Notes: generated by a model from the sequence alone, not told the origin. Numbered from the stretch's first letter, positions 6,046 to 33,400 are shown. The stretch: 64,000 nucleotides of DNA from Alkalispirochaeta sp. (GCA_965601925.1 OZ271854.1:4128001-4192000), one strand, 5' to 3'. Made by a program: numbers and translations.

Positions 6046-6771
6046 CTACTCAGCCTCCAACGATGCGAAGAACGTACCGCGCGCCATGTTGCTCCGGCAA
6101 CGCAGCAAGTGGTTCTGAAGAACGTCCACCGCCTCGGACGAGTTCTCCCGCAACAGCTCGTAGATTCGTCGATGGTCACTCTCGAGACGCTCCATATCCG
6201 GCTCGATACCGGCGCGGACGGTGAACGAAATATTGAGGTGGAGCGCGTTCGAACGATACGCACGCAACAGCTGCGCGTTTCCGGCGAGGCGGCACAACTC
6301 CACGTGAAAGAGCTGGTCGTACTTCACGAACTCACCCATGCGTCCGCGATCGTCGCCGACCGGCATGACCGCCTCCATCGCGTCGAGGTAGCCTTCAAGC
6401 TGACCGAGATCCTCGGACGTTACCGAGGGATAAACCCTCTTCACGGCGTGGAGTTCGAGCACGACTCGCAGCTCGAAGGCGTCAAGCATGTCGCGCCGCG
6501 TCGGCATTCGCACGATGCAAGTGCTCCGCGGCCGTACCTCGATGATTCCCTCGAACTCCAAACGACGAATCGCATCCCGCACCGGCATACTACTCACCCC
6601 CAAGATCTCGGCAATCTCGCGGATGCTCAGACGATCGCCGTAGGCGATCTCGCCTCCGATGATGCGGTTGGTGAGATACTCGTATATCTGCGCGCTGAGC
6701 GTCCTCGTCTCCAGAGGCGATTCGGTAACGGCGGCCTTCCGAGTCGCCCCCGATGCGGTTTCGTTCACCAT
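6046..6771 (-). CDS. GntR family (FadR/FCD) transcriptional regulator
   Basis: HTH LGVSSMPVRDAIRRLEFEG plus FCD-like DQLFH..GN segment. Confidence 0.9.
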   Translation of the reverse strand: MVNETASGATRKAAVTESPLETRTLSAQIYEYLTNRIIGGEIAYGDRLSIREIAEILGVSSMPVRDAIRRLEFEGIIEVRPRSTCIVRMPTRRDMLDAFELRVVLELHAVKRVYPSVTSEDLGQLEGYLDAMEAVMPVGDDRGRMGEFVKYDQLFHVELCRLAGNAQLLRAYRSNALHLNISFTVRAGIEPDMERLESDHRRIYELLRENSSEAVDVLQNHLLRCRSNMARGTFFASLEAE

Positions 6772-6854
6772 AGCCGTTCCTCGTTCCTTTGATATCCTAC
6801 AACAAGCGGGACGATCAAACCACGTCGGATCGGAGAAATCTGTAGAATCCTTTC

Positions 6855-6894
6855 TTGACGCCGCTACCGTTTCATCACATGATATCTGATATCA
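6855..6894 (+). promoter_or_regulatory. Putative sigma70 promoter overlapped by a palindromic operator
   Basis: TTGACG (6855-6860), 17 bp, CATGAT; palindrome TGATATC-T-GATATCA at 6880-6894, between divergent gntR and dehydrogenase genes. Confidence 0.55.
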
Positions 6895-7020
6895 CAGAGT
6901 AGTCAAATATGAGACGACCCGGAACGGACGATAGCGAGCCCGTCTCGAACGGGCGTGAAAGATGGAGGATGGGCGGGCACAGCTCGCAGATCTCTATGAA
7001 ATCCACCGTGGAGGCGGACC

Positions 7021-8031
7021 GTGTCGCGGAAATCGATCGTTGTCTTTGCAAGTTCATTTATGGATGAGCTGGAAACGCTGCCGGAGCGGTCGCATGCCGC
7101 CTACCGCGCGCTCGAGACCTTTGTGGCCGGCTCCGCGGAGCGGTACCGGATCGAGCTTAAGTGCGACAGAGATCCTCACGACCCGGTACGACGCGAGGAG
7201 CTCTCCGAGGCGGTCGGTGTGATCGCCGACCTGGAGCGCTACTCAGCGGAACTCTTGACCGAGGTGGGAGGCGCCGGCGGCGGTACGCTGCGCATCATAG
7301 CGCGCTACGGTGTGGGTACCGATAGCGTAGCGCTGGATGCGGCGACGCGCTCCGGCGTGGTCGTCGCCAACACCCCCGGTGCGAACTCGTTGCCCACCGC
7401 CGAGTGGAGCGTTGCGACGCTCTTGGACGTGGCGGGGCGTCGGATTCCACACCACGAGCGTGCCCGCGCGGGACGAGACAAACAAGGGCCCTCGCGCCTC
7501 GATGTGTACGGACGCACCTTAGGTGTCGTCGGTACCGGTACGATCGGTCGATTGGTGATTGGGCTCTTGCGCGGCTTTAACATGGAGGTGCTCGCCTACG
7601 ATCCATACCCCGATGCCGCGTGGGCCGAGGCGGCGGGAGCGCACTACGTCGCATTTGAGGAGCTGTTGGAGCGCGCCGATCTCATTACACTTCACGCATC
7701 GGTCCGTCACACTATCGTCGGCGCAGCCGAGCTCGCATGTATGAAACGCAACGCGGTCCTGGTCAATTGCGCTCGCGGCCTTCTCGTCGACAATCGACTC
7801 GCCTACGAGGCCGTCAGAAGCGGTGCGCTCTTCGGCTACGGTATTGACGAGGTGTGGCCGCACCCTGAACTCTCGCTTGCAGGCCTCAATATCGCCGCCA
7901 GCCCCCACGTCGGCAGCGATACCGACGAGGGAAAGGCGCGCATGCAGGAGGCGTCGGCCGCCGCCGTGATCGACTTTCTGTCGGGAAAGCGTCCGCAAAG
8001 CGTCGTAAACCCAGCCGTGTTCGAACGATAG
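7021..8031 (+). CDS. D-isomer specific 2-hydroxyacid dehydrogenase (phosphoglycerate dehydrogenase-like)
   Basis: RYGVGTD, NTPGAN, GVVGTGTIG, VNCARG and SPHVG motifs. Confidence 0.9.
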   Translation: MSRKSIVVFASSFMDELETLPERSHAAYRALETFVAGSAERYRIELKCDRDPHDPVRREELSEAVGVIADLERYSAELLTEVGGAGGGTLRIIARYGVGTDSVALDAATRSGVVVANTPGANSLPTAEWSVATLLDVAGRRIPHHERARAGRDKQGPSRLDVYGRTLGVVGTGTIGRLVIGLLRGFNMEVLAYDPYPDAAWAEAAGAHYVAFEELLERADLITLHASVRHTIVGAAELACMKRNAVLVNCARGLLVDNRLAYEAVRSGALFGYGIDEVWPHPELSLAGLNIAASPHVGSDTDEGKARMQEASAAAVIDFLSGKRPQSVVNPAVFER

Positions 8032-14307: not shown

Positions 14308-14589
14308 GGAGGAGTATGTTTGGTCCTGTTTCTGTTGGGCCGAAGTATCCCACAGCGTATTGAACGGCCGAGTGTAAGCAGTACTGCCGCGATGATTCTG
14401 CCATTCGATCCCACGCGGTCGACTTGGAAGTACGTACGGTGAACCGAGAAATACGCGGTTCACGGTCGCCGGATAGCCGGCTCTTGATGTCGATAATTAT
14501 CGAGGGCTGCCGCATCAGAAGGCGAGGATATCATGTGAATCGCGGGGGGTACAGTGCGGCGGGGAGTATGATTACGCCTTTGCACCACG

Positions 14590-15011
14590 GTCTTCGGGCG
14601 CGTCTCCCCTTGTTCAACGAAGGGAGCGGCCGTCGGTGTCGATCACTCAGCAGGCCCTTCGGGCCAGAAGTCGTGCTCGCCACCGCCGTCCGTTCCCCGG
14701 CGCGTTTCAACAGAGATGTCTCGTCCTCTTGTGAGATGTCGGGGGGACCGGGCTCCGGGTTCCGGGTTCCAATTCCTCGGCCCGATCATGGGTGGATGGT
14801 GGTGCGGTAGTTCTTACGACGGCTTGTCGTACCCATCACGCACCGACCGCTTCTCGGCTCACTTCGGCCGCATACCCGAGCAGCACGCAGTGCGTGCGAC
14901 CAGGGGCCGATCGCCGGCGGTCGTCGCCCCGGGCCGGCTGCATGGGCGCGCGGCAATCCGCCAAGGATTGCGACCAGCCCCTGTGGGATTTCCTCCCTTC
15001 GCACTCGCGCT
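14590..15011 (-). repeat. Structured non-coding element, copy E1 (longest; island boundary)
   Basis: Shares core TCGGGCGCGTCTCCCC...GATCACTCAGCAGGCCCTTCGGGCCAGAAGTCG...CGCCACCGCCGTCCGTT with 18887-19122 and 23414-23742. Confidence 0.9.
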
Positions 15012-15116
15012 ACGGTAAGTCATGTCGCGTTTGGTTCAACTGCGCGGTTTCGCCCCACTTCATCGTCCAGATGAGGTTTTGGATCTCCACGTTATTGTAA
15101 AAACATATACCGACAG

Positions 15117-16037
15117 TCAGGGTCCTGACGGCACGTTGAACTCAAGCCGGAAGTCCGGATTTCGTGTTTGTAGTTCGTCAAGATGCTCATTGAACCACGA
15201 TTCGAGCCGCTCGTACGTTCCAGTCCGCGGTCCAAATACCGTGTTGTTGATACTGTCGATATACAAGGTCCGAATATTCGACTCCAACAATGCGTCGATG
15301 TTGTTGAGTTCGGGTGTCTGCATAATATTCAAATCAAACTCGCCTGGAGTTGTATCAATGTTGTCGAGCGAACGAATTTGCGTCGAATCGACCCTAAGCA
15401 CACTAAGTCGCGTCATCCCTGACATATCCGGCAACGAGGTAATCCCCGTAAATGCAACATCGAGATACTCGATGTGTTCGTTATTCACGAGGACATCAAT
15501 TGATGAAATATCAGACCGGAAAAGTGTCAAATGACGCACATCGGTGTCAGCAATATTGGCAATGTCTTCGACTCTATCATTGAATGACAACTGCGATAGG
15601 GACAACTCCTTAGGAAGCTCCGGAACAGTTCGGACGTCAATATAATAGGTGGAAATGCTATCAATCCAACTGATCGCCATAGGGGAAAGTCGTGCTAAAT
15701 TATGAAGCAATCCTGTATCAGATCGTATCTCGTCGCGCATACCGGGAACACCCAAGTTACGCGTCCTCGAAGACCATTCGCCATCATATTGGTCCGCATA
15801 TGCTGTTAGCTCGGCGTTGATTGCGTCGATCGTCTGTTGATCCAACTCGCCATCCGGCGTCATTAAGCGATCAGTTCCAAGAACTTCTGTCGTCGCCTCC
15901 TCATTGACCAAAACTACCGGTGCCGATGATATCGGCTCCGAATCGCTTGTGCCATCGACATCTTTCGAACACGCGCTAAGGCTAAGAAGCAGAAGTACAA
16001 AGCATATGAGAAAATACCATACTTGTTTCTTCATCAT
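15117..16037 (-). CDS. Leucine-rich-repeat lipoprotein, candidate immunity/accessory protein
   Basis: Lipobox LSAC; LRR-like units (VRHLTLFRSDISSIDVL, IEYLDVAFTGITSLPDM, LSVLRVDSTQIRSLDNI); AT-richer than flanks. Confidence 0.7.
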   Translation of the reverse strand: MMKKQVWYFLICFVLLLLSLSACSKDVDGTSDSEPISSAPVVLVNEEATTEVLGTDRLMTPDGELDQQTIDAINAELTAYADQYDGEWSSRTRNLGVPGMRDEIRSDTGLLHNLARLSPMAISWIDSISTYYIDVRTVPELPKELSLSQLSFNDRVEDIANIADTDVRHLTLFRSDISSIDVLVNNEHIEYLDVAFTGITSLPDMSGMTRLSVLRVDSTQIRSLDNIDTTPGEFDLNIMQTPELNNIDALLESNIRTLYIDSINNTVFGPRTGTYERLESWFNEHLDELQTRNPDFRLEFNVPSGP

Positions 16038-16062
16038 TACCGGTAAGATGACGATTCAAACA

Positions 16063-17082
16063 CTACTCGGCTTCGCGGTACTGATTTTCAGGTACTTTCC
16101 AAGCTCGAACGGTACGCTCAAGTCGCTCTATTGGTCGCTCCCATGTGTGGTTGCGAATGATGGCGCTGATGGCGGTGTCGTCCCAACGACTCCCGGGGTA
16201 CACATCCAGAATCTCGAGTTGCACGGATCGAGTCGGCGTAGGGAAGTTAATGTATGAGAGCTCGACGACATCTTCAAATGTGTATTCAAACTCAAACCGT
16301 GTTTCCGGGTCCGTCGATCGGATCATCGCCGTACGCACACGATTGTTCATTCGAAACAAATGACGTCGCTCAGGATCAACAAATCCATTGAGCACGAGCA
16401 TGTGATCAGAGGGCTCTTCAAAGGTGATATCAAGCGTTACGCCAATCCCCGGCCCCTCTTCGCCTTCGACCCACGGATTATGGAGTGCGTTCCAGTACAT
16501 TGAGATTTGGTCACCAAAGAAAATGCTGCGAAGCAGCTGTGGTCCATACACAACCTCTTCTCCGTTAACGTCTTCTGACAAGATAGAGTGCGCAGATATC
16601 GACTCAACCCCAAAGCTGTATATTCGATGAGGTTCATTTCCCTCCGTTGCGGGCTCCAAAATCCAGAGTGCGTTCGGATTGTGGGCATTTATCTCAGTGC
16701 TGAAAAGCTGAAGGAAATTACCGCCAAACAACGTGAAAAAATCTTGACCCATGATCGTCGTTTCGTAATATCCACTCTCTGTCAAGACAATATCGTCGAC
16801 ATTCATCTCTTGCCAAATGGTGTCGAAGAACCACGTCATTGTGTCGCCCTCGCGCACAACGAATGATCCCGCGACCGGGAAATACCCGAACGCATTAGCG
16901 GCCACTTCGACTATCGGTTCAGCCGAGCCTGCATCGTCACTAGGTTCAACCATCAAAAGATGTGTTTCGTCAGCTAACATCGGCTCGCCGTTTGCATTGA
17001 TGGCACGGGAATCCCCTTCGGATTGCCGACAAGAAATAACCGTGATCAGAAAAATGATAATACCGACTGTTACTCGTCTCAT
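16063..17082 (-). CDS. Lipoprotein with C-terminal discoidin-like/NADase-type glycan-binding domain, candidate immunity protein
   Basis: Lipobox VISC; PWVEG..GPGIG, LNGF, NNRV and LDVYPGSRWDDTAIS motifs; starts 3 nt after the cassette stop. Confidence 0.7.
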   Translation of the reverse strand: MRRVTVGIIIFLITVISCRQSEGDSRAINANGEPMLADETHLLMVEPSDDAGSAEPIVEVAANAFGYFPVAGSFVVREGDTMTWFFDTIWQEMNVDDIVLTESGYYETTIMGQDFFTLFGGNFLQLFSTEINAHNPNALWILEPATEGNEPHRIYSFGVESISAHSILSEDVNGEEVVYGPQLLRSIFFGDQISMYWNALHNPWVEGEEGPGIGVTLDITFEEPSDHMLVLNGFVDPERRHLFRMNNRVRTAMIRSTDPETRFEFEYTFEDVVELSYINFPTPTRSVQLEILDVYPGSRWDDTAISAIIRNHTWERPIERLERTVRAWKVPENQYREAE

Positions 17083-17085
17083 AGT

Positions 17086-18886
17086 TTAATAGTACCAACT
17101 GTACCACGTATCTTCGAAGGGGACTTCGAATAACGTTGCGTCGATATGGTACCCACTCTCCATACCGGTCGATTCTAGAAATCCGAAAGTCGATTGAATC
17201 GTATCGTGCGATGTCACAAAACATCCGTCAGAGAAACATCCACTCGCCCAATCGGATGTAGCACCGGCAGCTCTATTTGAATGAAGAAGCCACCGTTCCC
17301 AGTCTGTTCCGTTACGCCCATCGTTACCGATCGCCTGTCCATCCAGTGTTGCGGCATTGTTAAGAATCAGTACTGCGTTCTGATTGCCGTCAATCTCTCC
17401 TGCAAATCCCGACGACTGACCATAATACGTTATACCCAACGATCCCGGCGCGATCGTGTTTCCCTGCACATTGCCGTGTACCGGATGATCGAACGGCTGG
17501 CTTAAGTTATCACCGCGCCTGTTCGTTGTCATATTGTCGACGGTGTGATACCCGCCAAACGCATCACCCGCGATGAGGTTACCGTCCAAGTCGTACTGCT
17601 GAATCACCAGATGATCCTGACTCTGGCTTCCTGGGTTATAGAGGTCATCCTCGTAAGCCGACCAGCCATTGTAGGTGTCGGGATTGCGAAAGATCTCGGC
17701 CTTCACGGTCGAGTATTCATACGCGCCGTCGGTGTACTCAGCCAAAATCCGACCCTGCTCGGCAAGATTTCGGTCGGTCAACGTCATGCCCTCAACTGTA
17801 AAGCCGCCTTCTCCGTCTGCTTGCCAACGACCTGCATCACCATTCCACTCCGCTCCCGCATTCTTCAACAACGCCTCGCCCACTAAGCTGTTCCGTTGCG
17901 CATCCGTCAGCCCATCAAGGCTTGCTCCCGGGTCGTGGCGTAGTATCTGCACATCAACCGCCGAAAATCCAAACACATCCATGAGTGTCTGGTCATCGTA
18001 GTTGCTTGGATCTGTTATGTCGCCTCCTAATAGCTGTCCCGCGCGTTCGTCGTCAACAAGGTTTCCCAGCGATGCAGCCCACCCCATTTCGTTCTGAGCG
18101 CCCTGTCCTTCTGGCGTCATCGTGCTGATCACATCGCCTTCGGCGTTTAGATACTCGACGGTCAACTCTTTGCTCCCGTCGTCGATGAGCTCATGAGTTC
18201 CATCGGCGTGTACGACCAGTTTCCAATAATCCGCACTGGAATCATAGGCACCGCCCACATACGAGACAAAGTCGCTGAAGTCACCTGTCTTCTGCGCCTC
18301 CACCAACCGCTTCACCTCGTCCTGTTGCATCCCCGTCAGCTGCTCGTCTCCGTAGATCCCCGCGACCTGCTGCGCCACCAACGTGTGGCCGACGACCGCT
18401 TGTACCGTCTCCTGCTGTTGTCCCAGCTCCCCGTTATCCACCCCATCCCGAAACGCCTCGTGCGATAACGTCAGTCCCAGCTGATACTTACTCCCCGCAC
18501 TCGCGCCGTCTCCCAGGTAGATCTGCTTCTGTCCGTTGACCAGCTCCGTCTCGGCACGACCGTCCGTACCGCCCCGTACCAACCGCGCCTCGCCCGACAT
18601 CAACTCATCATACAGCGCTTCGGTTTCGGCCAGTCCCGACGTGTCCAGCATCCGCATCGCGATCGCCTCGTCTCCGCGGAATCCCTCACGATGGATGTCC
18701 AAGCTCCGCCGGTACGATGAGAATCCGCCCATCCCTTGCATCACCTGGCCCACGCTCATCCCGATGCCCCCCATGCCCACATTGAACACCGGTCGATCGC
18801 CCCCCAGATTCAGCTCCAGTAGTCCCGTACCCGTGGGTCCTCCGAGGTCGCTCATGCTCAACACATTCAACGTCGTTTGCCCCGTC
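17086..18886 (-). CDS. Orphan C-terminal cassette 2 of the giant protein; L,D-transpeptidase-like (YkuD/Tlde1-like) tip
   Basis: Begins with TGQTTLN..GLLELNLGGDRPVFNVG, homologous to the giant protein; HEAFRDG and DYWKL; terminal H-x16-SDGCF; no signal peptide; the ORF-track N-terminus is just translated repeat. Confidence 0.75.
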
Positions 18887-19122
18887 GGGCTTCGGGCGCG
18901 TCTCCCCCGGTTCCAATTCGGGGGGAGCGGTCGTCGGTGTCGATCACTCAGCAGGCCCTCCGGGCCAGAAGTCGCGACCGCCACCGCCGTCCGTTCCCCG
19001 GCGGAGTACCGTAGGTGTGTCTCATTCTCATATGGGATGTCGGGGGGAGACCGGGCTGCGGACTGATAGTCCTCAGCCCGGCAATGGGTGGATAGTGCTG
19101 TGATTACTCTTACGTCGGTTCG
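18887..19122 (-). repeat. Structured non-coding element, copy E2 (shorter)
   Basis: Alignable to E1/E3 from TTCGGGCGCGTCTCCCCC to CTTACGTCGGTTCG. Confidence 0.9.
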
Positions 19123-19185
19123 CCGCAACTACTCTGCGTACATTCTCTTGCAGAGACTTCTCGATCTCTGCTCGTATCATCCCCG

Positions 19186-19836
19186 CTAACGAGTCCCTTG
19201 TGGGCAGTTTCGTTCAGGACTGCATTTGCTCGCCATTAGGCCAAAGTGATTGAGAAACAAATCTATCACTCGATTGCCGTCGTAAGGTTCTAATGACTCG
19301 CCGTAGTCGAGCCATCCATGGGCTGCTAAATCATGGGCAGTCATGCTCAATAGCCAATTGTAAGCCCCATCATTGCGTACGGTGTACTCAACTGCGCGTA
19401 CTACGAATGCCATCATTGCCTCATGGGCGCGCGGTTCTTGCGCAGGATCCAGTAGCCCAAGAGTTCCGGAAACTCCTTGCAAGCCAGCAATCGCCAAGGA
19501 ACTCGTCGCCCAACGGCGAGTCGATTCAGATCTCTCGATGAGCTTGACTTCCGACAAGAGAGAAACAACGTCGTCAACTTGCAGATCCGTCCGTCTCTCC
19601 AGCGCTAGGAGCGCGGCATCTGCAGAAGCCGACATGGGAAAATGGGCCGCGAAACGATACATATAAACTTCGAGCAAAACAGACGTATCGAGCTGCGAAA
19701 GCTCATCGTGAGGGATCGCTTCAACTCGCTCTATCATCTCACGTAGTTCGTTATCACTGTCCCAAGGGTCGGCATGTGTAAGTGTTGCGATAACGCAACA
19801 CTGCAAAATAAAAAGTAATCCGTAACGGTTCTGCAT
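19186..19836 (-). CDS. Exported protein, candidate orphan immunity (paralog of 20290-20916)
   Basis: Signal peptide ending THA-D; LDPAQEPRA and RAVEYTVRND shared with the paralog; TGATG overlap with the upstream remnant. Confidence 0.75.
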   Translation of the reverse strand: MQNRYGLLFILQCCVIATLTHADPWDSDNELREMIERVEAIPHDELSQLDTSVLLEVYMYRFAAHFPMSASADAALLALERRTDLQVDDVVSLLSEVKLIERSESTRRWATSSLAIAGLQGVSGTLGLLDPAQEPRAHEAMMAFVVRAVEYTVRNDGAYNWLLSMTAHDLAAHGWLDYGESLEPYDGNRVIDLFLNHFGLMASKCSPERNCPQGTR

Positions 19837-20045
19837 CAGTGGTACCATCCCGTGAAAGGTGTGCCGGGCCGTGATAGCAAGCCGCGATACGAGCTCGGAT
19901 TGTTGCCTAAACCACCAGGAGGAATGCTACCACCCACGGCAAACGCCATGAGTCCCTCCGTGTGTCCAAAGTACGGAACTGGAGGTGGGGCCGGATTGTT
20001 GATACCTTCCACTGCGTAGTTATACAGCCACTGGCCGGCGGGCAT
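19836..20045 (-). pseudogene. Remnant toxin tip, paralog of the last ~68 aa of cassette 1
   Basis: AGQWLYNYAVEGIN..YFGHTEGLMAFAVGG..FTGWYH versus AGQWVYNYGVEGIN..YFGHTEELMAYAIGG..YTGWYY. Confidence 0.8.
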
Positions 20046-20289
20046 CTCTTGGCAGGTATCTATCAGGTCGGTCGTCAAACAACAATTCGGAACTCTGCTC
20101 CAACGCGTCGACACTGTTAAAGCATATGCTCTGATTGTTGTGCTAAAAAACATTGATCGCTCGTTTGTTCCTACCGCTTCATCTCCCGTTTCTCCACTTC
20201 AGCACTTGCATGAAGTATTGGATACCAAAAACCTGCTGCGTTCGCCGTGAGTCCTCATACAATTAACCAGCTTTAGTCTCGCCGTATCC

Positions 20290-20916
20290 TTACCAGCCCT
20301 CGGGTCGTTGCATTGTCGCGGTGATTCCGTAGTGATCCAAAAACGATTGGACAAATGGTCGAACTGCGTTTCGATCATCAGGCGGATCAAATCCCAACCA
20401 ACCACCCCGATGTAGTGTTCCGACAGTGGCGGTTAGCAAAAAGTTTTCCGCAGCGTCATTTCGCACAGTGAACTCGATCGCGCGAGCAACAAAACCCATC
20501 ATAAGTTCAGCTGCGCGCGGCTCTTGATCGGGATCCAGCATATCCATCTCTTCGGCTAAATCCTTTAGTCCTACTAAGGCCCACATACTAGAATCCGACA
20601 AATAGACGGACTCAACTGAAGCTATAATCGGGATGTCAGCCATAGTCACCAATATATGATCAGGCTCAAGGTCAGACCTAAAAGCAAGCTCATTAAGTAC
20701 ATCCAATGCGGTGGGTGATACATCTATATAATGGACTGAATGATATGTATAAGCCTCAACGAGCTCAGTGGTAGAAAGCTCATCGAAATCCTTTTCGGAA
20801 ATCGAATCAAAATACTCTTTAGAGGACCGTAAAGCGTCTTCACTGTCCCACCACTGTGCATGTATCGCGTCGATGAGTAACCCCAAGATGATTGAACAAA
20901 TTATCCATTTCTTCAT
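20290..20916 (-). CDS. Exported protein, candidate immunity for cassette 1
   Basis: MKKWIICSIILGLLIDAIHA signal peptide; TAATG stop/start overlap at 20914-20918; AT-rich. Confidence 0.75.
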   Translation of the reverse strand: MKKWIICSIILGLLIDAIHAQWWDSEDALRSSKEYFDSISEKDFDELSTTELVEAYTYHSVHYIDVSPTALDVLNELAFRSDLEPDHILVTMADIPIIASVESVYLSDSSMWALVGLKDLAEEMDMLDPDQEPRAAELMMGFVARAIEFTVRNDAAENFLLTATVGTLHRGGWLGFDPPDDRNAVRPFVQSFLDHYGITATMQRPEGW

Positions 20917-23413
20917 TAATAATACCATCCTGTATAGGGTGATGGAGGCGTCAGCAAACCATCAAATGATGGAGCACCAGGATAAGCCCGATCGGCTCCC
21001 ATGAAACCGCCAATAGCATACGCCATCAACTCCTCAGTGTGGCCAAAATATGAATAGGGAAAACCTGGACTGATAGACCTGTTGATGCCCTCGACACCGT
21101 AGTTGTATACCCATTGGCCCGCAGACGTCGTCTGGCCGGTCTTCAGCACACCGGTCGTCAATGCTCGCAAGCTGTGTACACCTTCATGCATAAGAACGGC
21201 CGCGCGACTCTGACTAATACGACCAGGCTGAAGATCGCCGGCTTGCAATGGAGTAAGCACAAACTCTCCAAAGCTCATCATACTTGGAAGTCGATTTAGA
21301 TTTGGTGCACTTCCCGCAATCTGTGAGCTGATTGATGCGGCTAACTCGAACTGTTTCGTCGTTAGTCCGAGCACACTCAAGTTATCTAACACATCTTGCG
21401 TACCCTGCTGCCCCAATCCGTTCAATGTTCCTTGCAACTCCTGCAGTGGCCCAACAAACACTGAATCCTGAGGATTGTTGAATAGTTGGTCGCCGAAACT
21501 ACCCGATGTCCGATCGTGCAGCATCTGAGCAACCATCTGGGTGTTAATTAGAGAATCGAACGATACGTTCACATTGGGCAAGAGTGCACTACCGGCAGGG
21601 TTCATATCGATTGCCTCACTCACCCCTTCGGCAAACGTCTCGGCCTGAAACGCCAGGTTGAACGCTTCGTTCTGCGTGTCCAAGAACTCCCGAAGCGGGA
21701 CCGTATTGCCGTTTCCGTCGACAACTTGGGTACTATGTTGATTGTTCGGTAGATTGACTTCTTCCCCTACCTCGATAGAATCCCGATCGACAAGATGCGG
21801 GTTCATCCCCACGATCATATCCACCAGCGCCGCAGCCTTCGGATCGTTTGGGTCGATGCCGTAGATCTCTTCAATTAGGCCGCCTAAGGTGTCCCCGGCC
21901 TCTACCTCAGAAACGAATCCTAAATCTCCCGTAGCATTGATCTCCTGCACCGTATGAAGCCAGTTATCCTCACTGAAATCATAGCCGGTCATCACGTGTT
22001 CGGCAAACGCACTGAAGTCGCCGCTCGCCAATGCCTCCTCCATCATGTCCGCCTGCTCGCGTAATGCCGCGTCGCTGTCCAAGAATCCTTCGTAGTCCTG
22101 CTCCATCCGCATCGCCATCAACGTGTGCGCCGCCACCGCATCAAACGTCTCCTCATATTGTCCCCGAAAACCGTCTCCGATCCCGTTCCGGTGCGCCTCG
22201 TGTTGTAGCACCACCCCCGCCCGCAGACGGCTATTCACATTGTCCCGACCCCGTTCGCCCAAGGTCCCCAGATGGATCGTCTTCCGGCCATTCTCCAGCG
22301 TCGTCTTTCCATCCTGATTCACAAACCCGATCGCCATATCCGTTCGTCCCGCCAGAATATCCTCGCGGGCCGCCTGTAGTTCCTCATCCCCGTACGAATA
22401 CGCCGATCGCAACATCGTCCCTTCCCGCCGTATCCCCTCATATCCTGCCGCATACCGCGTTCCGCCGAACAGCTCGTACGCTGTGTTCCGCATGTTCTCT
22501 TTCCACGTTCCGAACCCGGCAACTCCCTGCGCTACCGTCACCGCGCTCGCGTCGATTCCTCCCATACCCATATTGAATACCGGTCGGTCGCCGCCGATGT
22601 TGAACTCCAACAACCCCGTCGACACCATCGCACCATTCGCCATCTCGATGCCGAACATGTTCATATTCAGCATGTTCAACGTCGTCTCACCCGTCCACGC
22701 GTACTCCAGTCCCGCCTGTGCCGCACCGCCTACCAGACCGCTGAAACTCCTCGCTTGGCTTGCGTGTTCCGCGCTGAATCCTTCGAGGTTTCCTGCAACA
22801 CCCGCGCCCACAACCGCGCCGGCCAGTCCCGCCAGGGCGTCCTCGCTGATCGTCGCGTCCTGGAACGTGTCGGTGTTGAAGTCGATGTCAAAGAAGCTGT
22901 CGCTATTCCACTCCAGCGAGTTGATCGCCGCGCTCGTCGTCGTGCTTGCTACGTACTGCATCCCGGCCATCGCCGCCTGGCCCACCAACGTGCTTCCCAC
23001 GTTCACCACTTCACCCAATCCGCCGCTGATCAGGTTCGTCATGAGTGTCGCCGCGGCCTTCTTCCCAAACGCTTCCCACGCATCGTCCGCGTCTTGCGCT
23101 CCTACCGCCACGTCCAGGCTCGTGAAGATCGCGTCGTCGGTCATGCTGATCGCCGTCGAGACCGCCGCTCCCGCCGCGTTGCCCGCCACCGCCGTGACCG
23201 CCGCCCCCGCAACCGATGCCGCGACCGCAAACCCGATGTCGTACGCCATCGTCACCGTCGGGGCGCCCAATAGTCCGTCCGGCTTCCCGTCGTTGTTCGC
23301 GTCGTCGTCCCAGAATCGTTGGCGATACAGTGGTACTTCCATCGCCGCCAGTCCGCGGCCCAACCGCCCCTCGTTTTTCATGAACGATTCCATGATCCGG
23401 CCCATCTCGCCGT
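20916..23413 (-). CDS. Orphan C-terminal cassette 1 of the giant protein; LysM domain plus HExxH metallopeptidase-like tip
   Basis: First ~205 codons nearly identical to the giant gene at 26300-26915; LysM-like VEAGDTL..MNPHL..IEVGEEVNLP (~21748-21909); HEGVH at 21174-21188. Confidence 0.8.
22798..23413. repeat. 616-bp direct repeat of giant-gene segment 26300-26915
   Basis: Colinear near-identical DNA encoding GEMGRIME...AVVGAGV; differences mostly synonymous. Confidence 0.95.
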
Positions 23414-23742
23414 AGAGTCTCGGGCGCGTCTCCCCTGTTCCAATCACGGGGGCCGGCCGTCGATATCGATCACTCAGCAGGCCCTTCGGGCCAGAAGTCG
23501 CGATCGCCACCGCCGTCCGTTTCCCAGCGGTTTCTATCAGGTGTGGCTCGTCCTCGTATGATGTGTCGGGGAGACCGGGCTCCGGGTTCCAATTCCTCGG
23601 CCCGGCAATGGATGGATGGTGATGTGACTAATCTTGCGTCGGTCCGTTGGAATCACGCCGCGACGGCCGCTTCTCGGCTCACTGCCGATCGCCGGCGGTC
23701 GTCGCCCGGGCCTGTGGGATTTCCTCCCTCCGCCCTCGCGCT
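23414..23742 (-). repeat. Structured non-coding element, copy E3
   Basis: Alignable to E1 over its whole length (ends CTGTGGGATTTCCTCCCT..CTCGCGCT on the plus strand) except for two missing stem-loop modules. Confidence 0.9.
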
Positions 23743-23791
23743 CGTTGAGAGTTATGTTATTCCCAATAGCGATAGAGAGCGGCATAAAACG

Positions 23792-24463
23792 CTAAACCCC
23801 TTCGATCATGATGTACTGATCCGCCGGCACCTCTTCGATCAATTCAAGCGTCCCCGCATCGGGATCGATCCGAATAATCGCATCCGGATGAAACCACTGA
23901 TCGTATACCAACGGATCGGTTTCAAAGTCCCAGTGCTCCAACCCAAACGAGTACTCCACCCGCTCTCCGATGAGCGATGAGGGATCGGAAACCGCCGCCA
24001 AGTCTTGGATCGTCACCAACGTGTTCTCCTTCTCCACGATCAGCCAATCGGAGAGTCGATAACTGTCGCCGTCTCGACGTGAGTAGAAAAACACAGCTCG
24101 GTCGGCTAAAGCAGCAATGTTAAACCAGCCAGTATCTCCCGTTCGCGGGATCGACATTCCTCCGCTATGATAAGCTCTATTTTCTTGTTGTTTCTCTCGA
24201 ATCCATCGACTCATGGTTGGAGTTGGCAGTTGTGCTCCACGATATTGCTCAAAGTCCACCGTCTCGTTGTTTCCTGCGTCAATCTGCTCGAGCAATTCGA
24301 TCAACTCCTCGTCGGTCATGGTCGGTCGCTGTCCCTCGGCAACGACCGGCTCGCTCGCGGTCGTGTCCATTTCGGCACTCATCGGCTCTTGCGTCTCTGC
24401 AGGGCGTACACAGGAACCCAACATCACTACCAACACTATCGTCATCATTATTATCCTGGCCAT
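23792..24463 (-). CDS. Lipoprotein, candidate cognate immunity of the M23 domain
   Basis: Lipobox LGSC; starts 2 nt after the giant gene stop. Confidence 0.7.
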   Translation of the reverse strand: MARIIMMTIVLVVMLGSCVRPAETQEPMSAEMDTTASEPVVAEGQRPTMTDEELIELLEQIDAGNNETVDFEQYRGAQLPTPTMSRWIREKQQENRAYHSGGMSIPRTGDTGWFNIAALADRAVFFYSRRDGDSYRLSDWLIVEKENTLVTIQDLAAVSDPSSLIGERVEYSFGLEHWDFETDPLVYDQWFHPDAIIRIDPDAGTLELIEEVPADQYIMIEGV

Positions 24464-24465
24464 CG

Positions 24466-27400
24466 TCAGTTCCCGTAGATGTGTGCGTCGAGATGAAAGG
24501 TATATTCGGTCGGATCCAAGAAGATGAACGGATCATAGCGATACCCCGTTCCTCGTGGCAGACGCTGATTCGCGTTGCTCATCAAGCTGTCCACCAACGG
24601 ACTTCGCTGCTGTGTCGTTATATCCACATGCAAGTGATTCCCATACGGCGACACACCTGGCCATACCCCTGTGTTGCCCGAGAGCCCGAGTTGCGTATTA
24701 CCGAACACCAACTGACCGTCTGCAAGGTTCTCGTTTCGTGACTCAAGATGAAGGTAGCGGGTCAGGATCGAATCGGTGCGAGGCTCTCCCTTGAATGTAT
24801 ACGTAACATCCGTGCGTGTCTCCTGAAAAAGTCCTGCAGCCACATTCAAATCGTCTCCAAAATTGTTGAATCGTGTATTTCCCCCGAACATGGAATGGAC
24901 CGGCGTACCCGCGGGCACGGCAAAGTCCACCCCGGTGTGCGGATTGGCCGAGTATGACCCGGTCGCGCCGAAGATCGCCGTCACCTCCGAGCCCGCCATG
25001 ATGTTATTCACCTGCAGATTCGTCTCCCCCGTGATGAAGTTCTGCTCCTTCCACTGCTCGTAGCTGATCACATCCACCTCCGGTTGCCGCCCGTCCCAAT
25101 AGTCGGTCTCCGGTCCCAATACCACCGGTCGCTCCACGTCCATCAACCCTCGCGCTACCAGGTCATTATAGATATTCAGCGTGTTGTGTCCCGCCAGCCG
25201 CTCGTTATAGATCGCCGCATACCGCTCGTTGTCCAGTCCAATCGAGCGGCCCGCGTTGCCCTCGTGGTTCCACCATACGCCCTCTCCGCGAAGCTCGAAC
25301 TCCTCGCCCCGCAAGAGCTCCGCCGCCTCGGCCGCCCCGATTCCCAGGATGTTCTGCAATCCTCCCTGAATCCCCTCGGCACCGATCCGGTTCCCGTCGT
25401 CGTCCAGGATGTAATTCCCGTTCGAGTCCTTCAACCACCCGTCTTCGGTCATCACCAACGAGCCGTCTTCCATCAGTTTCCAGTTATCCACCGGTCCCTG
25501 ATTCGGGAGGTAGCTCCGGCCGTCCGCCAATGCATCCTCGATACTCTGCTCAAAGGCCGCATTCCCCTCCAACTCTAACGCCGCGACCACATTGTTGTAC
25601 ACCGCATCACCCACCAGATGGGCGTTCGCCTCCGTCGTCTCCCCGGTCAGCATCCGGTCAAACAAATGCGTTCCCTCGTGCGCCGCCACCGACGCCAACA
25701 TCGCCGCCGTCTCTTTGTCATTCGCCAGCAGGTCTCGGTTCATCACGATTGTCGTCGGATCCGCTCCATGGTTGTAGTATCCGTAGTGTCCTTCGTCCAG
25801 ATCCTCATAGCGCGTCTGGATGTCTTTATTCCACACCCCCGTTGCCAACGCCAGATTCCCCGCGATCGCATTGTAGTTCACCAGATTCAGGTCACCTCGA
25901 CTCTCAATTCCCCGTTTAGTACCCAATGCGCCGCCGATCTTCGCACTCCCGATCCGCGCAATATCGCTCATACCGCCCATCGCCGTCGCAATCGAGCCCA
26001 CGTCAAAGCTCGTACCCCCGCTTCCCACGTTGAACGCAGGGCCGTCGCCGCCGATGTTGAACTCCAACAGTCCCTGACTCAGGATTCCAGGCCCATCGCC
26101 CGTCTCATACTCGATACCCAGCATGCTCAGGTTCACCAGGTTCGCCGTCGTGTCTCCCGTCCATGCGTAGTCCACACCCATCTTGGCTGCGTTCCCCGCA
26201 AGACTCGAAAAGCTCGTGATCGCGTCGGTGTCGAATACCTCGCTGTTCAACGCAACGCCCGTGCCGTCCGATCCCAGGAAGTCTCCCAGTCCGCCGGTCA
26301 CCCCCGCTCCCACAACCGCGCCGGCAAGGCCCGCCAGGGCGTCATCGCTCATCGTCGCATCCTGGAAGGTGTCGGTGTTGAAGTCGATGTCGAAGAAGCT
26401 GTCCGAGTTCCATTCCAACGAGTTGATCGCCGCACTTGTAGTGGTGCTTGCCGCGTATTGCATGCCCGCCATCGCCGCCTGGCCCACCAACGTGCTGCCC
26501 ACGTTCACCACTTCTCCCAATCCGCCGCTGATCAGGTTCGTCATGAGTGTCGCCGCGGCCTTCTTCCCAAATGCCTCCCACGCATCGTCCGCGTCTTGCG
26601 CTCCTACCGCCACGTCCAGACTCGTGAAGATCGCGTCGTCGGTCATGCTGATTGCCGTCGACACCGCCGCTCCCGCCGCGTTCCCAGCCACCGCCGTGAC
26701 TGCACCGCCGACCACCGATGCCGCGATCGCAAACTTGATGTCGTACACCATCGTCACCGTCGGTGCGCCCAACAGTCCGTCCGGTCTCCCGTCGTTGTTT
26801 GCGTCGTCGTCCCAGAATCGTTGGCGATACAGCGGCACTTCCATCGCCGCCAGTCCGCGGCCCAACCGCCCTTCGTTCTTCATGAACGCTTCCATGATCC
26901 GGCCCATCTCGCCGTGACCCGCTTCCTGCACTCGCTCCGGGTTGTCGCTGCGCATGATCGGCGCGTAGCCGACGTGGAAGTTGAATAGTCCTTCCGTGTC
27001 GTGGTGCAGGTACTCCTCCTCGCCGCTCTCTTCATTCTCCCGCGTCCGGTGGTAGCCCGCCGCCGCTTCCCAACTCGCGGTGGCTGCCGCAAAGCGCTCT
27101 TTGAGCTCGCCGTTCAGCTCCTCGATACTGATCGCGCCGGTTCCTTCGTCTTTCTGGTCGTCGTTCCGTCCGAAGATCAGAATCTGATATCGCTCCATCT
27201 CTTCGTACGCCGCCGCGATCATCGTCTGGATGCCTCGACTCGACAAGCCGTCCAACGACTCCTCCGAGAGGTCCACCTGGGGTGCAAAGACCGGTGAGGT
27301 GAAGTAACGATAGTCTTCTACTCGCTGTGTCTCTCGTTCGATGCCCCCAAACAGCGTCTCATCGATGATGATCCGGCGACTCCATTCTCGTCCCGATAAG

Positions 27401-30400
27401 CGGTATCCTTCCCGCTCGAAGGTGTCCTCGATGCTTCCCGCCATGTTCCGGTTCGCGTCGTCTATCCCGTCGGTCGCCGCGTTGATCCCTTCGCGGATCT
27501 GTTCCCGCATCTGCAATGCCGTCACGCGCATCGCGCGCCGCTGGATCTCTTCGCCCAACTCGTCCGATAGCGCTCGGGCGCTTCGCGCACTCTGCGTCGT
27601 CGAGCGTACCCGCGGCAGATACGCCGCCACGATCGGGCTCCCGCCGGCGCGGTCGGCGATCCGGCCCGCCTCGCGCACGATCGTCGAGAGCATCCGTCCG
27701 TCGGTCGCCTCCCGCACCGTGTGTTCCAGATTCCCCACTTCGATATCCAGATCCGGGACTGCGATCGCTTCGCTTTCGGCGATCAGCCGTTCGGCGTCCA
27801 GTCCCACTTGTCGCGCCGTCGCCTCGCTCCCGGCGCGCACCGCGTGCTGCGTCGTCCGTTCGATCCATTCCGTACGCGATTGCGTCATCCGGTCGTAGCG
27901 GGCGTTCCACACCGCCACCGCCTCCGCATACGCCTCCTGCGTCTCTTCCTGGAACCGTTTCCGCTGTCCCGCCAACCGGACCGATCCCGCCTGCCACTCC
28001 GTGAGGCCCGTCGCCACGAGGCTGTTCATCCGGACCGTCCAGTCGTCCTCGCGACGCATCAGCGTCTCGTACTCCATGGTCAGGCGGTGGGATTGCGCGG
28101 TATGGACGCCGCCCAGGCGCATCCCCGCCGCGTCGTGAATGTGGGCGGCGATCAGCTCCAGCTGAAATGCCCGCGCCTCGTCGTTGAAGGTCGCAAGAGC
28201 GCCGGTCGGCGCTCCCGTCGTACCGCGGCGAATCAAGACCGCCTCCATCGATCCCTGTCGATACGCCATGTGGTCGGCGATGTCGTAGGCGGGGTCGGCA
28301 AAGCGCGTGCGCGTCACCGTCTCCAGCTCCGCCTCGGTGACCTCTTCGCCCCGCAGATAGCGTCCCAACACCGTCTCGTAGGATATCTGGTCGTTCTGTT
28401 GCACCGTCGCCAGCTCCGCGATCCGGTCGGCGACCGCCGTTCCCGCGGTATGGACGTCCGATGCCAACCGCGCCTCGGCGGCGGCAAGGACCGAGAGGCT
28501 CGTCGCGCGCTCCGATGCGCTTCCGCCGCTCACCACCTCGGCAATCATGGCGCTCAGTTCGGCCGAAATCGCACCGGTACCCGACGCGGTCAGGGAGGTA
28601 CGCACCTCCGCCGCGGTGGGGCGTTTGCCCGCCAGTACGCGCAGCTCGGCCGCCTTCGTATTCTGATCGTCAAGCGCCGTCGTTCCTTCGCCGAATAGTT
28701 CCATCGAGACCGTCCGCTCGTCCGCACCGGAGTAGTTCGGCAGCTGTCGCCGCAGGCTTCGGATACGCTTACCTCGGCGTCGCTTGAAGATCCGTCGGAG
28801 CCGCATGTAGTCCCGCTGCTTGTCCCGCGCCCGGTCGTCCACGTACTCGCGCGCGATATGTGAGACGTCGTCGGCGACCCACGTAACGTGGTCGGCGGCA
28901 AACGATACGTTCTCCCCGCCGTGCACCACTACCATAGAAAAGAAGCGATAGGCGCCCAGTGCCAAACTGTTCCCGTGCACCCGATGGTGTGCCGCCTCGA
29001 GGTCGTTTCTGACGCGGCTGTCCACGCTTCCTTGAGACCATCCGATCTTGCCCAATAGGTTATTGAAGGTCTGATTGTTGTAGATCGGCGCTTTGGTCAC
29101 CGCATAGTCATCCTCAGGATGAACACCGGCAAAATAGAGGTCGTAATACAACGCCAGGCCGATATCGCGATATACTCCGCCACCCAGTTGGTTCATCGTG
29201 CGAATCCATGCACCCAAATCGGTCGAAAAGGCTTCCTGCCAGTCGCCGGAGAAGTAGCCGGCGGTCTGAAACCGTTCCGAATTTCCCGAAATCCGTCCCG
29301 TACCGATCGCGTCGTAGTCCGGTGCGAAGGTATAGTCCGCGCCGTATACCAGCTGATGGGCCGTCCGTGCGACCTCCATTTGGCTCGCCGCCAATGCACC
29401 TTCGGCCCCCGAGGTCTTGACCGCCAACGTCTCCCGGACCACCGCCGCCTCTTGGTAGGTCAGCATCGCCTCGCGCTCCTCGGCGATGAGGTCTTCGTAG
29501 CGCTGGTCCCGACTCGCGTCGGTCACACGCTCGGCGTGCTCTTCCACCAGACGCAAGGCGGTGCGCGCTCGTTCCAACTCCTCGCTCCGCCGCAGCACCA
29601 CCGCCGCCGGGTCGATCTCGTCGGTCAGATACCCGGTGCGCGCGTAGTCCATGATCTCCTCGGCCTCTTGTAGCTCCCGGCGTGCCGCAGTATACGCGCC
29701 CCGCGCCGTATCCACTCCGCTCGCCGCCGCCGCATAGTCCGTTACCGCCTCATCAAAGGCGCGAATCGCCTCCTCGTACTCCCGTCGGGCGTCGTCCACC
29801 CTCCCGCGCTGCGTCTTGATATCTTCCTTCAGCGGGGCGATGGTATTTGTCGCAAACTGCGCGGCATCCGCCTCAAAGTCCGCCTGCGTCGCCCGCGCCG
29901 CATCCAGGTCACCCAGCGTCCCCAGATAGGTCGACTCGGCACCCAGAAAGGTCGTCCGGGCGCCGGATCGTGCGCTCCCCGCCGCCCCGTCGGTCACCAA
30001 CTCCACGATCTCGTCGCGGCTGCTCGTCGTCAACGCCGCGATCGCCTCGCCGATCAGTCCCTTGATCGGCGCGCTCGCGATCCCCCCGGTAGTCGTCGGG
30101 CTGGTCAGGGTGTGATAGCTCGTGTCACCCGCCTCGTCCACCAGATGTCGCAACCACGCCGCCCCGGCGTTGGCTTTCGTCAGACCCTCGTACTCACTCC
30201 GCAGGGCGCCGACACCCGCGTCGTCGGCACTCCCGCCGACCGCGGCCGCCGCCGCATCGCGATCATCCGTACTCGCATCCGGGTCTTCCAACACCTCCAA
30301 CGCCGCGGCCAATACTTCGGCGCGCTCCCGATTCTCCACGGGACCCACGAACGACACCGACCCACCCAGCTCCGCGATCCGCGCCCGCGTGTACACCGTC

Positions 30401-33400
30401 ACCAGGTCCGCCACCGCCGTGGGAATGTCGTCCATCGCCACCAGCTCTTCGTAGATATCCCGCAACGTCGCAATGGACGGAACGGTGTCTCCCGTGGTGA
30501 TCGGCGCCACGATCGCCGTTACCGTCGCCGCGTAGACGGCCATTCGCGTCCCGATCGTGGTGATCGAGACCTCCCGATACGCCTCCCACGCGTCCCGTAA
30601 CGCCTCGGCGTCGGCGAGTGCCGTCACCTCGTCGCGAAGCAGATCGTCCACGAGTCCCGCGTAGTCGACGCCGAAGTCCGTATCCCGCTCTCCGGTCTCA
30701 AAGACGATCCGCGCCGCTCCCGCCGCATCGCTCCCGTCCGAAAGCGCATCCACGTCGATCGTCACCAGAGACGGGTCAAAGACCACATACGCCACCCCCG
30801 GCGGCGGCGTGCCCGCTCCCGTGTCGTCGGTCATGATATAGACCGTGCCGATCGCCGGATCCGCGGGGATCTCGCTCGCATCGGCTACCGTCACCACCGT
30901 CGGCTCCGTCGGCGCACTCAGGCCCGCGTCCACGGCCGCCGTCACCGCCGCCGCGTAAGCACTCGTCACCGCCGTATCTCGCGCCGCATCGATCATCGCG
31001 GCCTCCGCCGCCACCAAGGTGTCGTAGTGTCCTTGGATCGCGTCGCGCGCCGCCTCTCGCGCCGCGTCCAGAGCCGTGTAGGCCGCCGTCACCGCCGTGG
31101 TGTGGCCGTCCCCGATCACCGCGATCTCATCCGCGCTCGCCCATCCCGCCTCGTCGGTCACCACCGTGCCGCGCAATACGCGGATCGCGTACTCGCTCCG
31201 CGCCACATCCCGTGCCGCCGCCGCGGTCGCATCCGCCAGCAGCCGTTCCGCCGCCAGCTCGCGCAGCCGTCGTTCCGGTGTCCCCGTCCCCACCGCCGTC
31301 GCCGCATCGATCGCCGCCACCAGGTCCGCATACCGTCCCGTCTCGATATCGAGTCCCGCCGCCGCCAAGGTCAGTCCCAGCTCCTCGGCGTCCACCGTCG
31401 CCCAATCGATCGCGAGCCCCGCGAGTACATCTCGGTGCGCGATCAGCGTCGGAAGGTCGACGTACTCGTCGCTCTCCGCATCGTCACTCCCGGCAAGGTC
31501 ATGGGCGATCGAGAGCGCGTCCTCCCACGCCGTCGCCACGTGCGCATCCGCGTCGGCTCTCGCATACGCCTCCGCATTCGCCGCACGCCCTTCGCCGGCG
31601 TGCGTCGTAACGTGATCGGAGAGGGTGCGAATCAACGTGTCGTAGACGCTCGCGTCGTTTAACCGCTGCACCTCTTCCGCCGCCGCAAGCTCCGCGGTAA
31701 TCCGTCGCAGCTCCGCCTCCTCGATCGAGAGCGCCGCCTGCCGGTCCGCCAACGCCGCCTGGGCGTCGGGTAACAGCGTCCGCGTCATCGTCTCCAAGGT
31801 CGCGATCGCCTCGGCAAACGCCGCCTCCGCCGCCTCGAACGCCGCCCGCTCCACAGCATAGCGCGCCTCGGTCTCGGCCAACGTCGCGCGGTCCGAGGAG
31901 GTATCCGCCGCGTATGCGGCCACCGCCTCGGCAATGGCGTGCTGATCCTCCAGCGCGGCGACCATGCCCGCCAGTCGCGCCGCCTCCACCTCGCCGGAGC
32001 TCAACGCCGCCCCGTAGGTGTCCAGCTCGCCGAACATCCCGTACAGACTCGCCTGGGCGCCGTCGCGCATCGCCTCGAAGTCCGCCAACACTCCGCCGGT
32101 CCCGTCCGCGCCGTGCCAATAGACCAGCTCCTCGTTTACCTCCGCCAACGGCGCGTGCGTCGCCGCATACCGCCCGTTGATGAGGTCTAAATCCATGAGA
32201 ATCTTCGCTGTCGGCGCCTGATGGTCGTAGGCCGCTACACCAAAACGGTTCTGTAACCACGCTACCCACTCGGCCTCGTGGTCACGAACGTAATTGCCTA
32301 TGTTAGTGAACGGATGTCCGAGACTTTGAGCTGTAAATGTTCTCTTCAGATCAAAATCACCATCGTGGTTGCTCAAAAACGTGTTGTATCGCGCATTCGC
32401 AAGCTCGGTCTGTTTCGCTTTGCGCTGCGAGAGATAGGTTGTTTGATCATCGAGGAGAGCGGTACGCATCTCCTCCAAGGCGGCGATATTGCGCTTCGCC
32501 ATCGCCACCACGTCGGCCGCTTGGCGATACACCGCCAGATACGCCTCGCTCTCCGATCGGATCTTCGCCTGTTCTTCCGCCGCCGCACGGGCAAGCTCCG
32601 CCATCGTCTCGTCAAACGAGTCCCGAAACGCCGTCGTCGTCTCCTCCCACGCCGCCGCACCTACCGCCAGCACGTCCTGCATCTCTCCGATCCACGCGCT
32701 CCGCGACGCCTCGAACGATCGCAACGCCTCGTCCCACGCCGCCTCCGCCTCGCGATACTGCTCCTGCGCCTCCGACTCCCACGCCATCCGTTCGGCGATA
32801 AATCGCTCTTCCGCACCGTTCCACGCGCTCAATCCCCGCGCAAACTCCGCCTCAAAGCTCTCCTGCCACGCCTCCGCCTCTATCCGCGCCTCGCCCACAT
32901 CCGCGTCACCCTCCGGTACCAACGCCGCCAGATGCGCGCTCACCTCGTCCAACCTCACCTGCGTGTCGCGAATCAACCGCCCCGCCGTCGACCGCGCCGT
33001 CTCCTCCTCCGCCTGCCGCCGCATGCTGTAGCTGTCCTGTAACCGCCCCTGCGCCAACCGCCGGCTCGATCGTATCACCTGCGACCGAAACTCCCGCTCG
33101 ATATGCGCCTTGTACTCGCCCACCGATACCGCCAGCTCGCTCGCCACCGTCTCCCGCACCGCGCCCTCAAACGTTCCCAACACCTCCGTCGCCGTCGCCT
33201 CCGCGCTCGCTTCCCACGCCGTGTACAACGCCGCAAACGCACCCTCGACCTCCGCCTCCCACGCCGCCGCGGCCGCCTCGTATCCCTCCGCACCCTGCAG
33301 GATCACATCCCCCGCCTCGTCGAAGGTGTACTCGCCCCCGCCGTCGGTCTCGTACAGATATCGCCGATTCGCCGCATCGATCGCGCGCCGCAGCCCCGCC

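Follow-up and report, generated by a model that had tools for sequence, protein, structure and literature searches.

Regular joints between a folded repeat and displaced toxin tips in an Alkalispirochaeta genome

How the end of a short, non-coding repeat comes to be joined, base to base, to the interior of a toxin gene is the question raised by a stretch of 64,000 nucleotides (nt) from Alkalispirochaeta sp., referred to here as the window. The genome (G000) is one contig of 5.05 Mb and is 96.7% complete. Read on its minus strand, the window presents a giant toxin gene, a small open reading frame (ORF), a copy of the repeat that we call element E (copy E3), a first orphan cassette, a small ORF, a tip fragment with a further small ORF, a second copy (E2), a second orphan cassette, two lipoprotein-like ORFs, a third copy (E1) and then unrelated DNA. 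In the interval shown we read two boundaries between the modules of a polymorphic-toxin array with displaced (orphan) tips. Orphan-tip arrays of Rhs and CdiA genes, with C-terminal displacement, are said to have been described by Poole et al. in 2011. For Rhs tips, formation of a circle followed by single-crossover homologous integration has already been proposed (Jackson et al. 2009, PMC2935791), and in the accessible part of that paper the authors left the origin of the first circle open.

Joints between element E and the orphan cassettes

The tail of E3, GGGGAGACGCGCCCGA followed by GACTCT (last base 23414), abuts ACGGCGAGATGGG (23413 downward) with zero spacer. In the full-length giant gene, G1 (33678 to 24466), the same sequence stands at nt 6764 (window 26915; ACG at 26913-26915, minus strand) and reads GGGTC/ACGGCGAGATGGG, the slash marking here and below the point of the joint. 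E2 ends in GACGCGCCCGA AGCCCG (last base 18886) and abuts, also with zero spacer, ACGGGGCAAACGACG (also given as ACGGGGCAAACG). The counterpart in cassette 1 is TGG/ACGGGTGAGACGACG (also given as TGG/ACGGGTGAGACG) at 22694 (ACG at 22692-22694, minus strand), and that in G1 is ATGG/ACGGGAGACACGACG (also given as ATGG/ACGGGAGACACG) at nt 7519, window 26160 (ACG at 26158-26160, minus strand). A sequence-only reading of the window had described both element ends as fused to mid-gene breakpoints without intervening DNA, and our re-reading of the two joints bore this out.

A second toxin locus of the same genome, which holds the paralogous giant gene G2, supplied further joints: AGTCCC/ACGAGACG at c1337 (G2 nt 6575), AACAC/ACGAAGCG at c1333 and its duplicate c1324 (G2 nt 7061), and GACCG/ACGGGATC at c1329 (G2 nt 7658). 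With the duplicate counted once, there were five independent joints, two in the window and three in the second locus. In all five, 6 nt of element followed GCGCCCGA before the joint, and the match to the parent gene started with ACG; the motif was ACGG in three and ACGA in two, at five different gene positions, and the gene-side breakpoints were spread over ~400 codons. Since ACG occupies 3.9-5.3% of positions in the joint region of the genes, the probability that five of five joints would fall on it by chance is ~4e-7. The caution attached to the earlier reading, that a motif shared by two joints might be accidental, can thus be set aside for G000: here the shared motif is not due to chance. 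It follows that regular joining, as opposed to random breakage, gave rise to the toxin arrays, with the 3' end of E acting as a fixed breakpoint in the toxin loci of this genome.

Part of the ACG may be the element's own, since 9 of 17 tails have AC at +7/+8, among them 3 of the 11 that have no cassette joint; the joint would then be an overlap of 2-4 nt. Beyond ACG(G/A), the gene-side sites resembled neither each other nor the 5' start of the element. Selection of gene-side sites by resemblance to that start (ACGAGCGCG...) beyond ACG was rejected, as the joints ranked only 30th to 63rd among 65-95 ACG sites. Four of the five joints were in codon phase 2, a bias that was not significant (p=0.23).

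Family, fold and distribution of element E

E1, E2 and E3 belong to one repeat family with a 165-nt core and a length of up to ~330 nt. By a covariance model (R1) built from 16 copies, with strong copies defined as those of at least 80 bits, G000 holds 16 strong copies plus weaker remnants. All three window copies are on the minus strand. E3 (23414-23746; 162 bits) is full-length and carries the tail GACGCGCCCGA plus GACTCT; E2 (18886-19139; 164.9 bits) is shortened on its 5' side; and E1 (14588-15015; 176.6 bits), the terminal copy, contains two nested REP-like inserts and is followed by unrelated DNA (TGGTGC...) and no cassette. The two toxin loci account for eight of the 16 strong copies, which all share the orientation of the toxin genes, with one copy following each tip/immunity module; both toxin arrays terminate in an element copy.

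The core folds as a long hairpin whose short helices are interrupted by conserved G/A mismatches. Its variable apical hairpin is flanked by two invariant stretches, GACUUC and CUGAGUGA, and a conserved single-stranded tail, GCGCCCGA-N6, extends beyond its closing helix (GUCUCCCC with GGGGAGAC). In an alignment of 16 sequences, the 25 pairs had 90.5% of cells paired, compared with 32-46% for slid partners, and eight pairs showed double changes. Covariation was 0.217 against 0.147+/-0.014, a level reached by 0 of 500 shuffles. One pair was G-U in 10 of the 16 copies, where the complementary strand could not pair; therefore, the folding strand is the toxin-sense strand, and the covarying fold is found on that strand only. 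The evidence for the fold is its covariation, since the single-sequence folding energy of E3 (z = -0.9) was uninformative.

Full-length copies have ~165 nt extra on the 5' side, and CGAGCGCG at the 5' end is complementary at seven of eight positions to CGCGCCCG at the 3' end. The target-site duplication that would accompany terminal inverted repeats in a MITE was not seen at the two sites with relatives, at which the 5' limit of E was uncertain. A scan of E on its own strand scored neither promoter-like nor terminator-like sites. Some copies contain nested 45-nt REP-like units. These form a separate palindromic family of ~45 nt, with the core GGTCGCAATCC..GGATTGC, nested in E1 at window 14935-14985 and 14860-14905. 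Palindromic units of ~45 nt also occur in tandem at G000:C1 527483-527619 and 1475225-1475310, and the genome has no RAYT/Y1 gene.

Rfam returned nothing at gathering threshold over the window and, at E<=10 over 14400-24000, three weak matches only, none of which overlapped an element copy. Plasmid and phage collections gave no match to the element. A collection scan with a loose pattern produced 120 GC-rich chance matches, and 0 of 80 loci scored as the element; a metagenome scan with a tighter pattern gave six matches, three of them the copy of one relative (G009, below), and no autonomous form with an enzyme gene. A literature search for an earlier description of such an element returned general orphan-tip papers only. 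E is a candidate for a new family of structured RNA or single-stranded DNA.

The other eight strong copies lie outside both toxin loci. Seven single sites were examined and proved to be ordinary intergenic DNA, with E in either orientation; three of the seven copies were antisense to both neighbours. At c4264, ~580 nt, consisting of E and ~210 unique nt, separate two EF-G genes, and in 8 of 8 aligned genomes of the same genus this interval measures 40-80 nt and lacks the insertion. The E tail there supplies the TAG stop of the upstream gene, leaving EF-G one codon shorter than in relatives. The c2359 copy sits at a synteny break, and its GCGCCCG is followed directly by flanking DNA that starts with a convergent gene's stop codon. 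At c4264 (G000:C1 4264852-4264870), at c2359 (2360007-2360015) and also at c1271 (1271522-1271530), the 3' end of a single copy lies at or within a few bases of a convergent gene's stop. Empty-site comparison for the E1 flank and c1271 found no usable orthologous DNA in relatives. A copy reduced to its 5' half (c841) is found at G000:C1 836000-841600, beside transposase fragments and a series of small ORFs resembling orphan immunity genes.

The toxin loci and their relatives

All genes of the array lie on the minus strand. G1 (24466-33678) encodes 3070 amino acids (aa), and its only Pfam match is Peptidase_M23 in the variable C-terminal tip (PF01551, 30.7 bits, cut-off 28.7); the giant genes of G000 gave no Pfam match to YD/Rhs repeats or a CdiA-type body. 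The candidate immunity gene of the attached tip (23792-24463; 223 aa) has a signal-peptide-like start and no family match. Orphan cassette 1 (20916-23413) begins with ACGGCGAG and is 91% identical to G1 nt 6764-7379 before it passes into a different tip; its candidate immunity gene (20290-20928) encodes 212 aa. There follows a short tip fragment of 105 aa with a homologous immunity-like gene of 220 aa (19186-20153), the fragment (window 19186-20289) being low in GC and resembling the final ~70 aa in the type of tip that cassette 1 carries. Orphan cassette 2 (17086-18885) begins with ACGGGGCAA and encodes, first, 60 aa similar to G1 aa 2507-2575, after which comes a different tip. The two lipoprotein-like genes after it (15117-17082), one with an NADase-type glycan-binding domain and the other LRR-like, are candidate immunity or accessory genes. 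GC content is 47-53% in the tips and small immunity-like ORFs and 60-70% in the conserved gene core. Counting both loci, five orphans match G1 or G2 over 60-470 aa and then diverge. Each tip is followed by a small ORF with a signal peptide and no family match, a candidate immunity gene. An open frame leads from a GTG or TTG inside the element into each orphan cassette of the window (23413-23510 and 18885-19128), with the peptide VA(I/V)ATSGP(K/E)GLLSDR..., and orphans could conceivably be translated from within the element; the corresponding frame is closed in c1333.

The second locus (G000:C1 1.324-1.348 Mb, 1324000-1348500) contains G2 (3157 aa), three orphan cassettes, five element copies, a duplicated immunity-like gene and, after c1327, an inserted IS3-family transposase. 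The conserved body of G1 is 78% identical to that of G2 across ~2800 aa. In both loci the retained core shrinks away from the full gene, starting at G1 aa 2256 and 2507 in one and at G2 aa 2193, 2355 and 2554 in the other, an order that chance would give 1 time in 12. Copies from different loci are mosaics of blocks with 93-99% identity, which points to ongoing recombination. Public sequencing comprised four runs of one sample, available as contigs only, and no RNA data set was listed. Mapping of these contigs gave one joint (14905 to 23684) and a loose end at 23746 that fit the paralogous copy c1324, whose element is itself a mosaic of E1-like and E3-like blocks.

Among 60 relatives, the model found E only in G009, with a 145-bit copy and a 33-bit opposite-strand echo, and in G019, with one weak match. 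In G009 the element occupies the place of ~135 aa that are missing from a YD gene relative to its G017 homologue, with a downstream joint at about GCGCCC/GACCCGGAAGG. Between the strong and weak copies of the G009 organism (L243 1531-3184) lie a short Rhs fragment and a gene pair labelled by eye as nucleotidyltransferase/HEPN-like. In G017, which belongs to another genus, a 3357-aa gene and a series of orphans form a true YD/Rhs locus, and this single locus contains all six copies of a ~275-nt element, F. F directly precedes five orphan Rhs cassettes and also sits at the array end. F and E share the block GAGCCCGGUC and the tail GGGACGCGCCCGAA, and their closing helix covaries, being GUCUCCCC with GGGGAGAC in E and GUCCCGCCGG with CCGGCGGGAC in F. 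The host genes of the G009 and G017 elements carry YD repeats.

How the joints may have formed

The explanation that we favour, tentatively, is that E breaks at a fixed point, its 3' end, that short AC(G) homology joins this end to the gene, and that the resulting units are then shuffled by homologous recombination. We infer that a break, nick or strand switch would occur at the base of the folded element and that the broken end would be joined to an ACG in the gene by an overlap of 2-4 nt with the dinucleotide AC, at which the element often stops. The joining route might be tandem duplication, circle closure or an E-anchored deletion, and its products would be units of 5'-truncated core, tip, immunity gene and E. 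With the conserved core as the left-hand and E as the right-hand region of exchange, homologous recombination would then bring tips onto the full-length gene and take them off it (C-terminal displacement). Also in favour of this explanation, E marks rearrangements elsewhere in the genome, namely the c4264 insertion and the c2359 copy at a synteny break. As in Rhs/CdiA orphan-tip arrays, a full gene is followed by 5'-truncated core fragments with other tips and candidate immunity genes, and GC content drops in the tips. The G000 arrays fit the displacement scheme set out for Rhs in the accessible part of PMC2935791. They differ from Rhs/CdiA arrays, as far as that part of the paper describes them, by a conserved folded element at module ends and a regular joint motif (+6, ACG), and from Rhs in that the giant genes have no Rhs/YD Pfam match. 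The sequence-only reading, with its circle and single-crossover integration, is only partly supported.

Several observations weigh against a fixed breakpoint with short-homology joining. An unaided reaction would have to join ends that share only three bases, which is very little homology. Plain replication slippage would not usually place five joints at one nucleotide, and the five-of-five regularity counts against it. Not every orphan has an element: the tip fragment in the window has a 5' joint without a copy (19836-20153), and G017 orphans lack one at 326717 and 349432. Two independent F-to-cassette joints in G017 depart from the pattern, one lying at GCGCCCGA+12 nt/AACCACC in three identical copies (a fourth, diverged, is at +16, /ACCACC) and the other at GCGCCCGA+7 nt/GTACGGC in one copy; they begin with AAC and GTA and do not have ACG at the joint. 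Consequently, the +6/ACG rule is a feature of G000 and not a property of the whole E/F group, so that the junction motif sought across genomes on the earlier reading held in five of five G000 joints and failed in G017, where the joints answer to what that reading had named as its refutation. The 3' boundary of E also varies among single copies, falling after GCGCCCG at c2359, at ~GCGCCC in G009 and at ~+7/8 at c4264. The E end is less sharp than a transposon end, and these variable boundaries, with the G017 joints, argue against an end of that kind. Finally, since copies outside the toxin loci occur in either orientation, E may have another primary role, e.g., as RNA.

That last possibility leads to an account that we consider unlikely, in which E is first of all an RNA element (a motif of the 3' untranslated region, of processing or of a small RNA) and the uniform joints result from E-anchored deletions trimmed until selection stops them, with no dedicated machinery. 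It agrees with a fold that covaries and has G-U pairs on the strand transcribed in the toxin operons, with the three single copies that reach a convergent gene's stop (c4264, c2359 and c1271), as if deletions ran to an essential limit, and with the fall of core length away from the full gene at each of the two loci. However, selection-limited deletions would not hit ACG in five of five cases, and the three single copies that are antisense to both neighbours, the lack of a scored promoter-like or terminator-like site on the strand of E, and the order of core shortening in G017, which is not monotonic, all speak against it.

The remaining accounts call for an enzyme. At neither toxin locus was a recombinase found in cis, except for the IS3 copy in the second locus. 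Searches of the whole of G000 (96.7% complete) gave 0 matches to RVT_1 (PF00078), Y1_Tnp (PF01797), the TnpB zinc ribbon (PF07282), IS110 DEDD (PF01548), Relaxase (PF03432) and MobA_MobL (PF03389), with positive controls throughout. Of the enzymes proposed on the earlier reading, an IS91-like Y2 transposase gene is present, whereas no match was found to a reverse transcriptase or an IS200-type HUH enzyme. It seems unlikely that a new cassette-capture system for toxin tips uses E and F as its recombination sites, akin to a toxin-tip integron or a bacterial Helitron-like element. A single-strand enzyme would then recognise the folded element, cut just past its tail and join it to ACG-type sites in toxin genes, and arrays of tips and immunity genes would be built and reshuffled as a result.

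Rolling-circle capture of the IS91/ISCR/Helitron type, in which an HUH enzyme acting in trans would use loose N/ACG sites and the hairpin-bearing 3' end of E to release a single-strand circle (ACG to tip, immunity gene and E) that integrates, is doubtful. Its resemblances are considerable: one fixed 3' end with hairpins just upstream, a variable other end on a short motif, capture of adjacent host sequence, and a fold specific to one strand, as expected for a single-strand intermediate. The Helitron 3' hairpin is described as a terminator in the accessible part of PMC4778049. In G000 there is one IS91-family Y2_Tnp gene, 0.4 Mb away (C1 3753890-3755230; L228 1174-2510, minus strand), and Y2_Tnp occurs in 7 of 22 family genomes, including all three with E. 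But the G000 gene is frameshifted, consisting of two overlapping frames (221 aa and 232 aa) in a lower-GC patch, and the intact 456-aa relatives are two in G001; no working transposase is linked to E. When the IS91-like ends were defined from the G000 copy and the two identical G001 copies, the right end, ...GATAAGTTTTCCCATGATT (...GGATAACTCTTCCTACTACT in G001), was unlike E, and the flanks were GGTG and TGCG instead of ACG. IS91 targets are the tetranucleotides GTTC and CTTG, neither of which was seen. G017 has six F copies and no Y2_Tnp match, and Y2_Tnp accompanies E/F in 3 of 4 genomes, compared with 7 of 22 in all (p~0.08), a figure that overstates the link because the genomes are related. 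The G017 joints and single-copy boundaries vary, unlike the end of such an element. No circle joint or deletion had support in the contigs of the public runs (one sample). The comparison with IS91 made on the earlier reading keeps the fixed end, the variable short-motif partners, the strand-specific fold and a Y2 gene in the genome, and loses an intact enzyme, related ends and a circle.

Less probable still is an integron-like origin, with E as a non-canonical attC-like site recombined at NAC/G by IntI or a Xer-type recombinase. An integron integrase is encoded in G000 (TIGR02249, 401 bits against a cut-off of 265; C1 3568218-3569582, ~0.58 Mb away) and also in G017 and G019, and, like integron cassettes, the arrayed G000 modules each end in a site that folds on one strand, with an ORF preceding the site and the boundary at a short conserved motif on its 3' edge. 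A crude scan near intI revealed no convincing attC array, the neighbours being large ORFs, which leaves room for E as a substrate of the integrase. The attC consensus has R'' and R' core boxes with a GTT crossover triplet, whereas E lacks these boxes at its joint. E is also longer (165-330 nt), and its centre is conserved in sequence, whereas attC keeps only its ends. The integrase is not adjacent, no E was found in a 40-kb stretch around intI (~12 kb on its upstream and 26 kb on its downstream side; filters off), and the G000 cassettes start inside a gene instead of being whole ORFs. IntI exceeded the cut-off in 8 of 22 genomes, five of them without E/F, and did not track E/F; here too the G017 joints vary. 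On one G019 contig, the integrase gene and an IS91-like gene are neighbours.

Like REP/BIME elements and the PATEs derived from IS200/IS605, E is short, non-coding, multi-copy and dispersed between genes, with a strand-specific hairpin, but it is far larger and more complex than REPs, and no Y1 HUH (RAYT/TnpA) or TnpB gene was found in G000. An IS200/IS605 PATE or TnpB omega-RNA (PF01797, PF07282), a retroelement leaving 5'-truncated copies by reverse transcription (PF00078) and an IS110 element with a bridge RNA (PF01548) were rejected on the 0 matches in G000 to the respective families. Mixtures of the enzyme-driven accounts with RNA-based trimming are also possible.

Orphan-tip arrays are common, and the formation of the first joint between a module end and the middle of a gene is left open in the accessible part of PMC2935791. 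Since the joints in Alkalispirochaeta are not random, linking one element nucleotide to one gene trinucleotide, they make this joining step testable, and they point to a possible dedicated route for diversifying interbacterial weapons.

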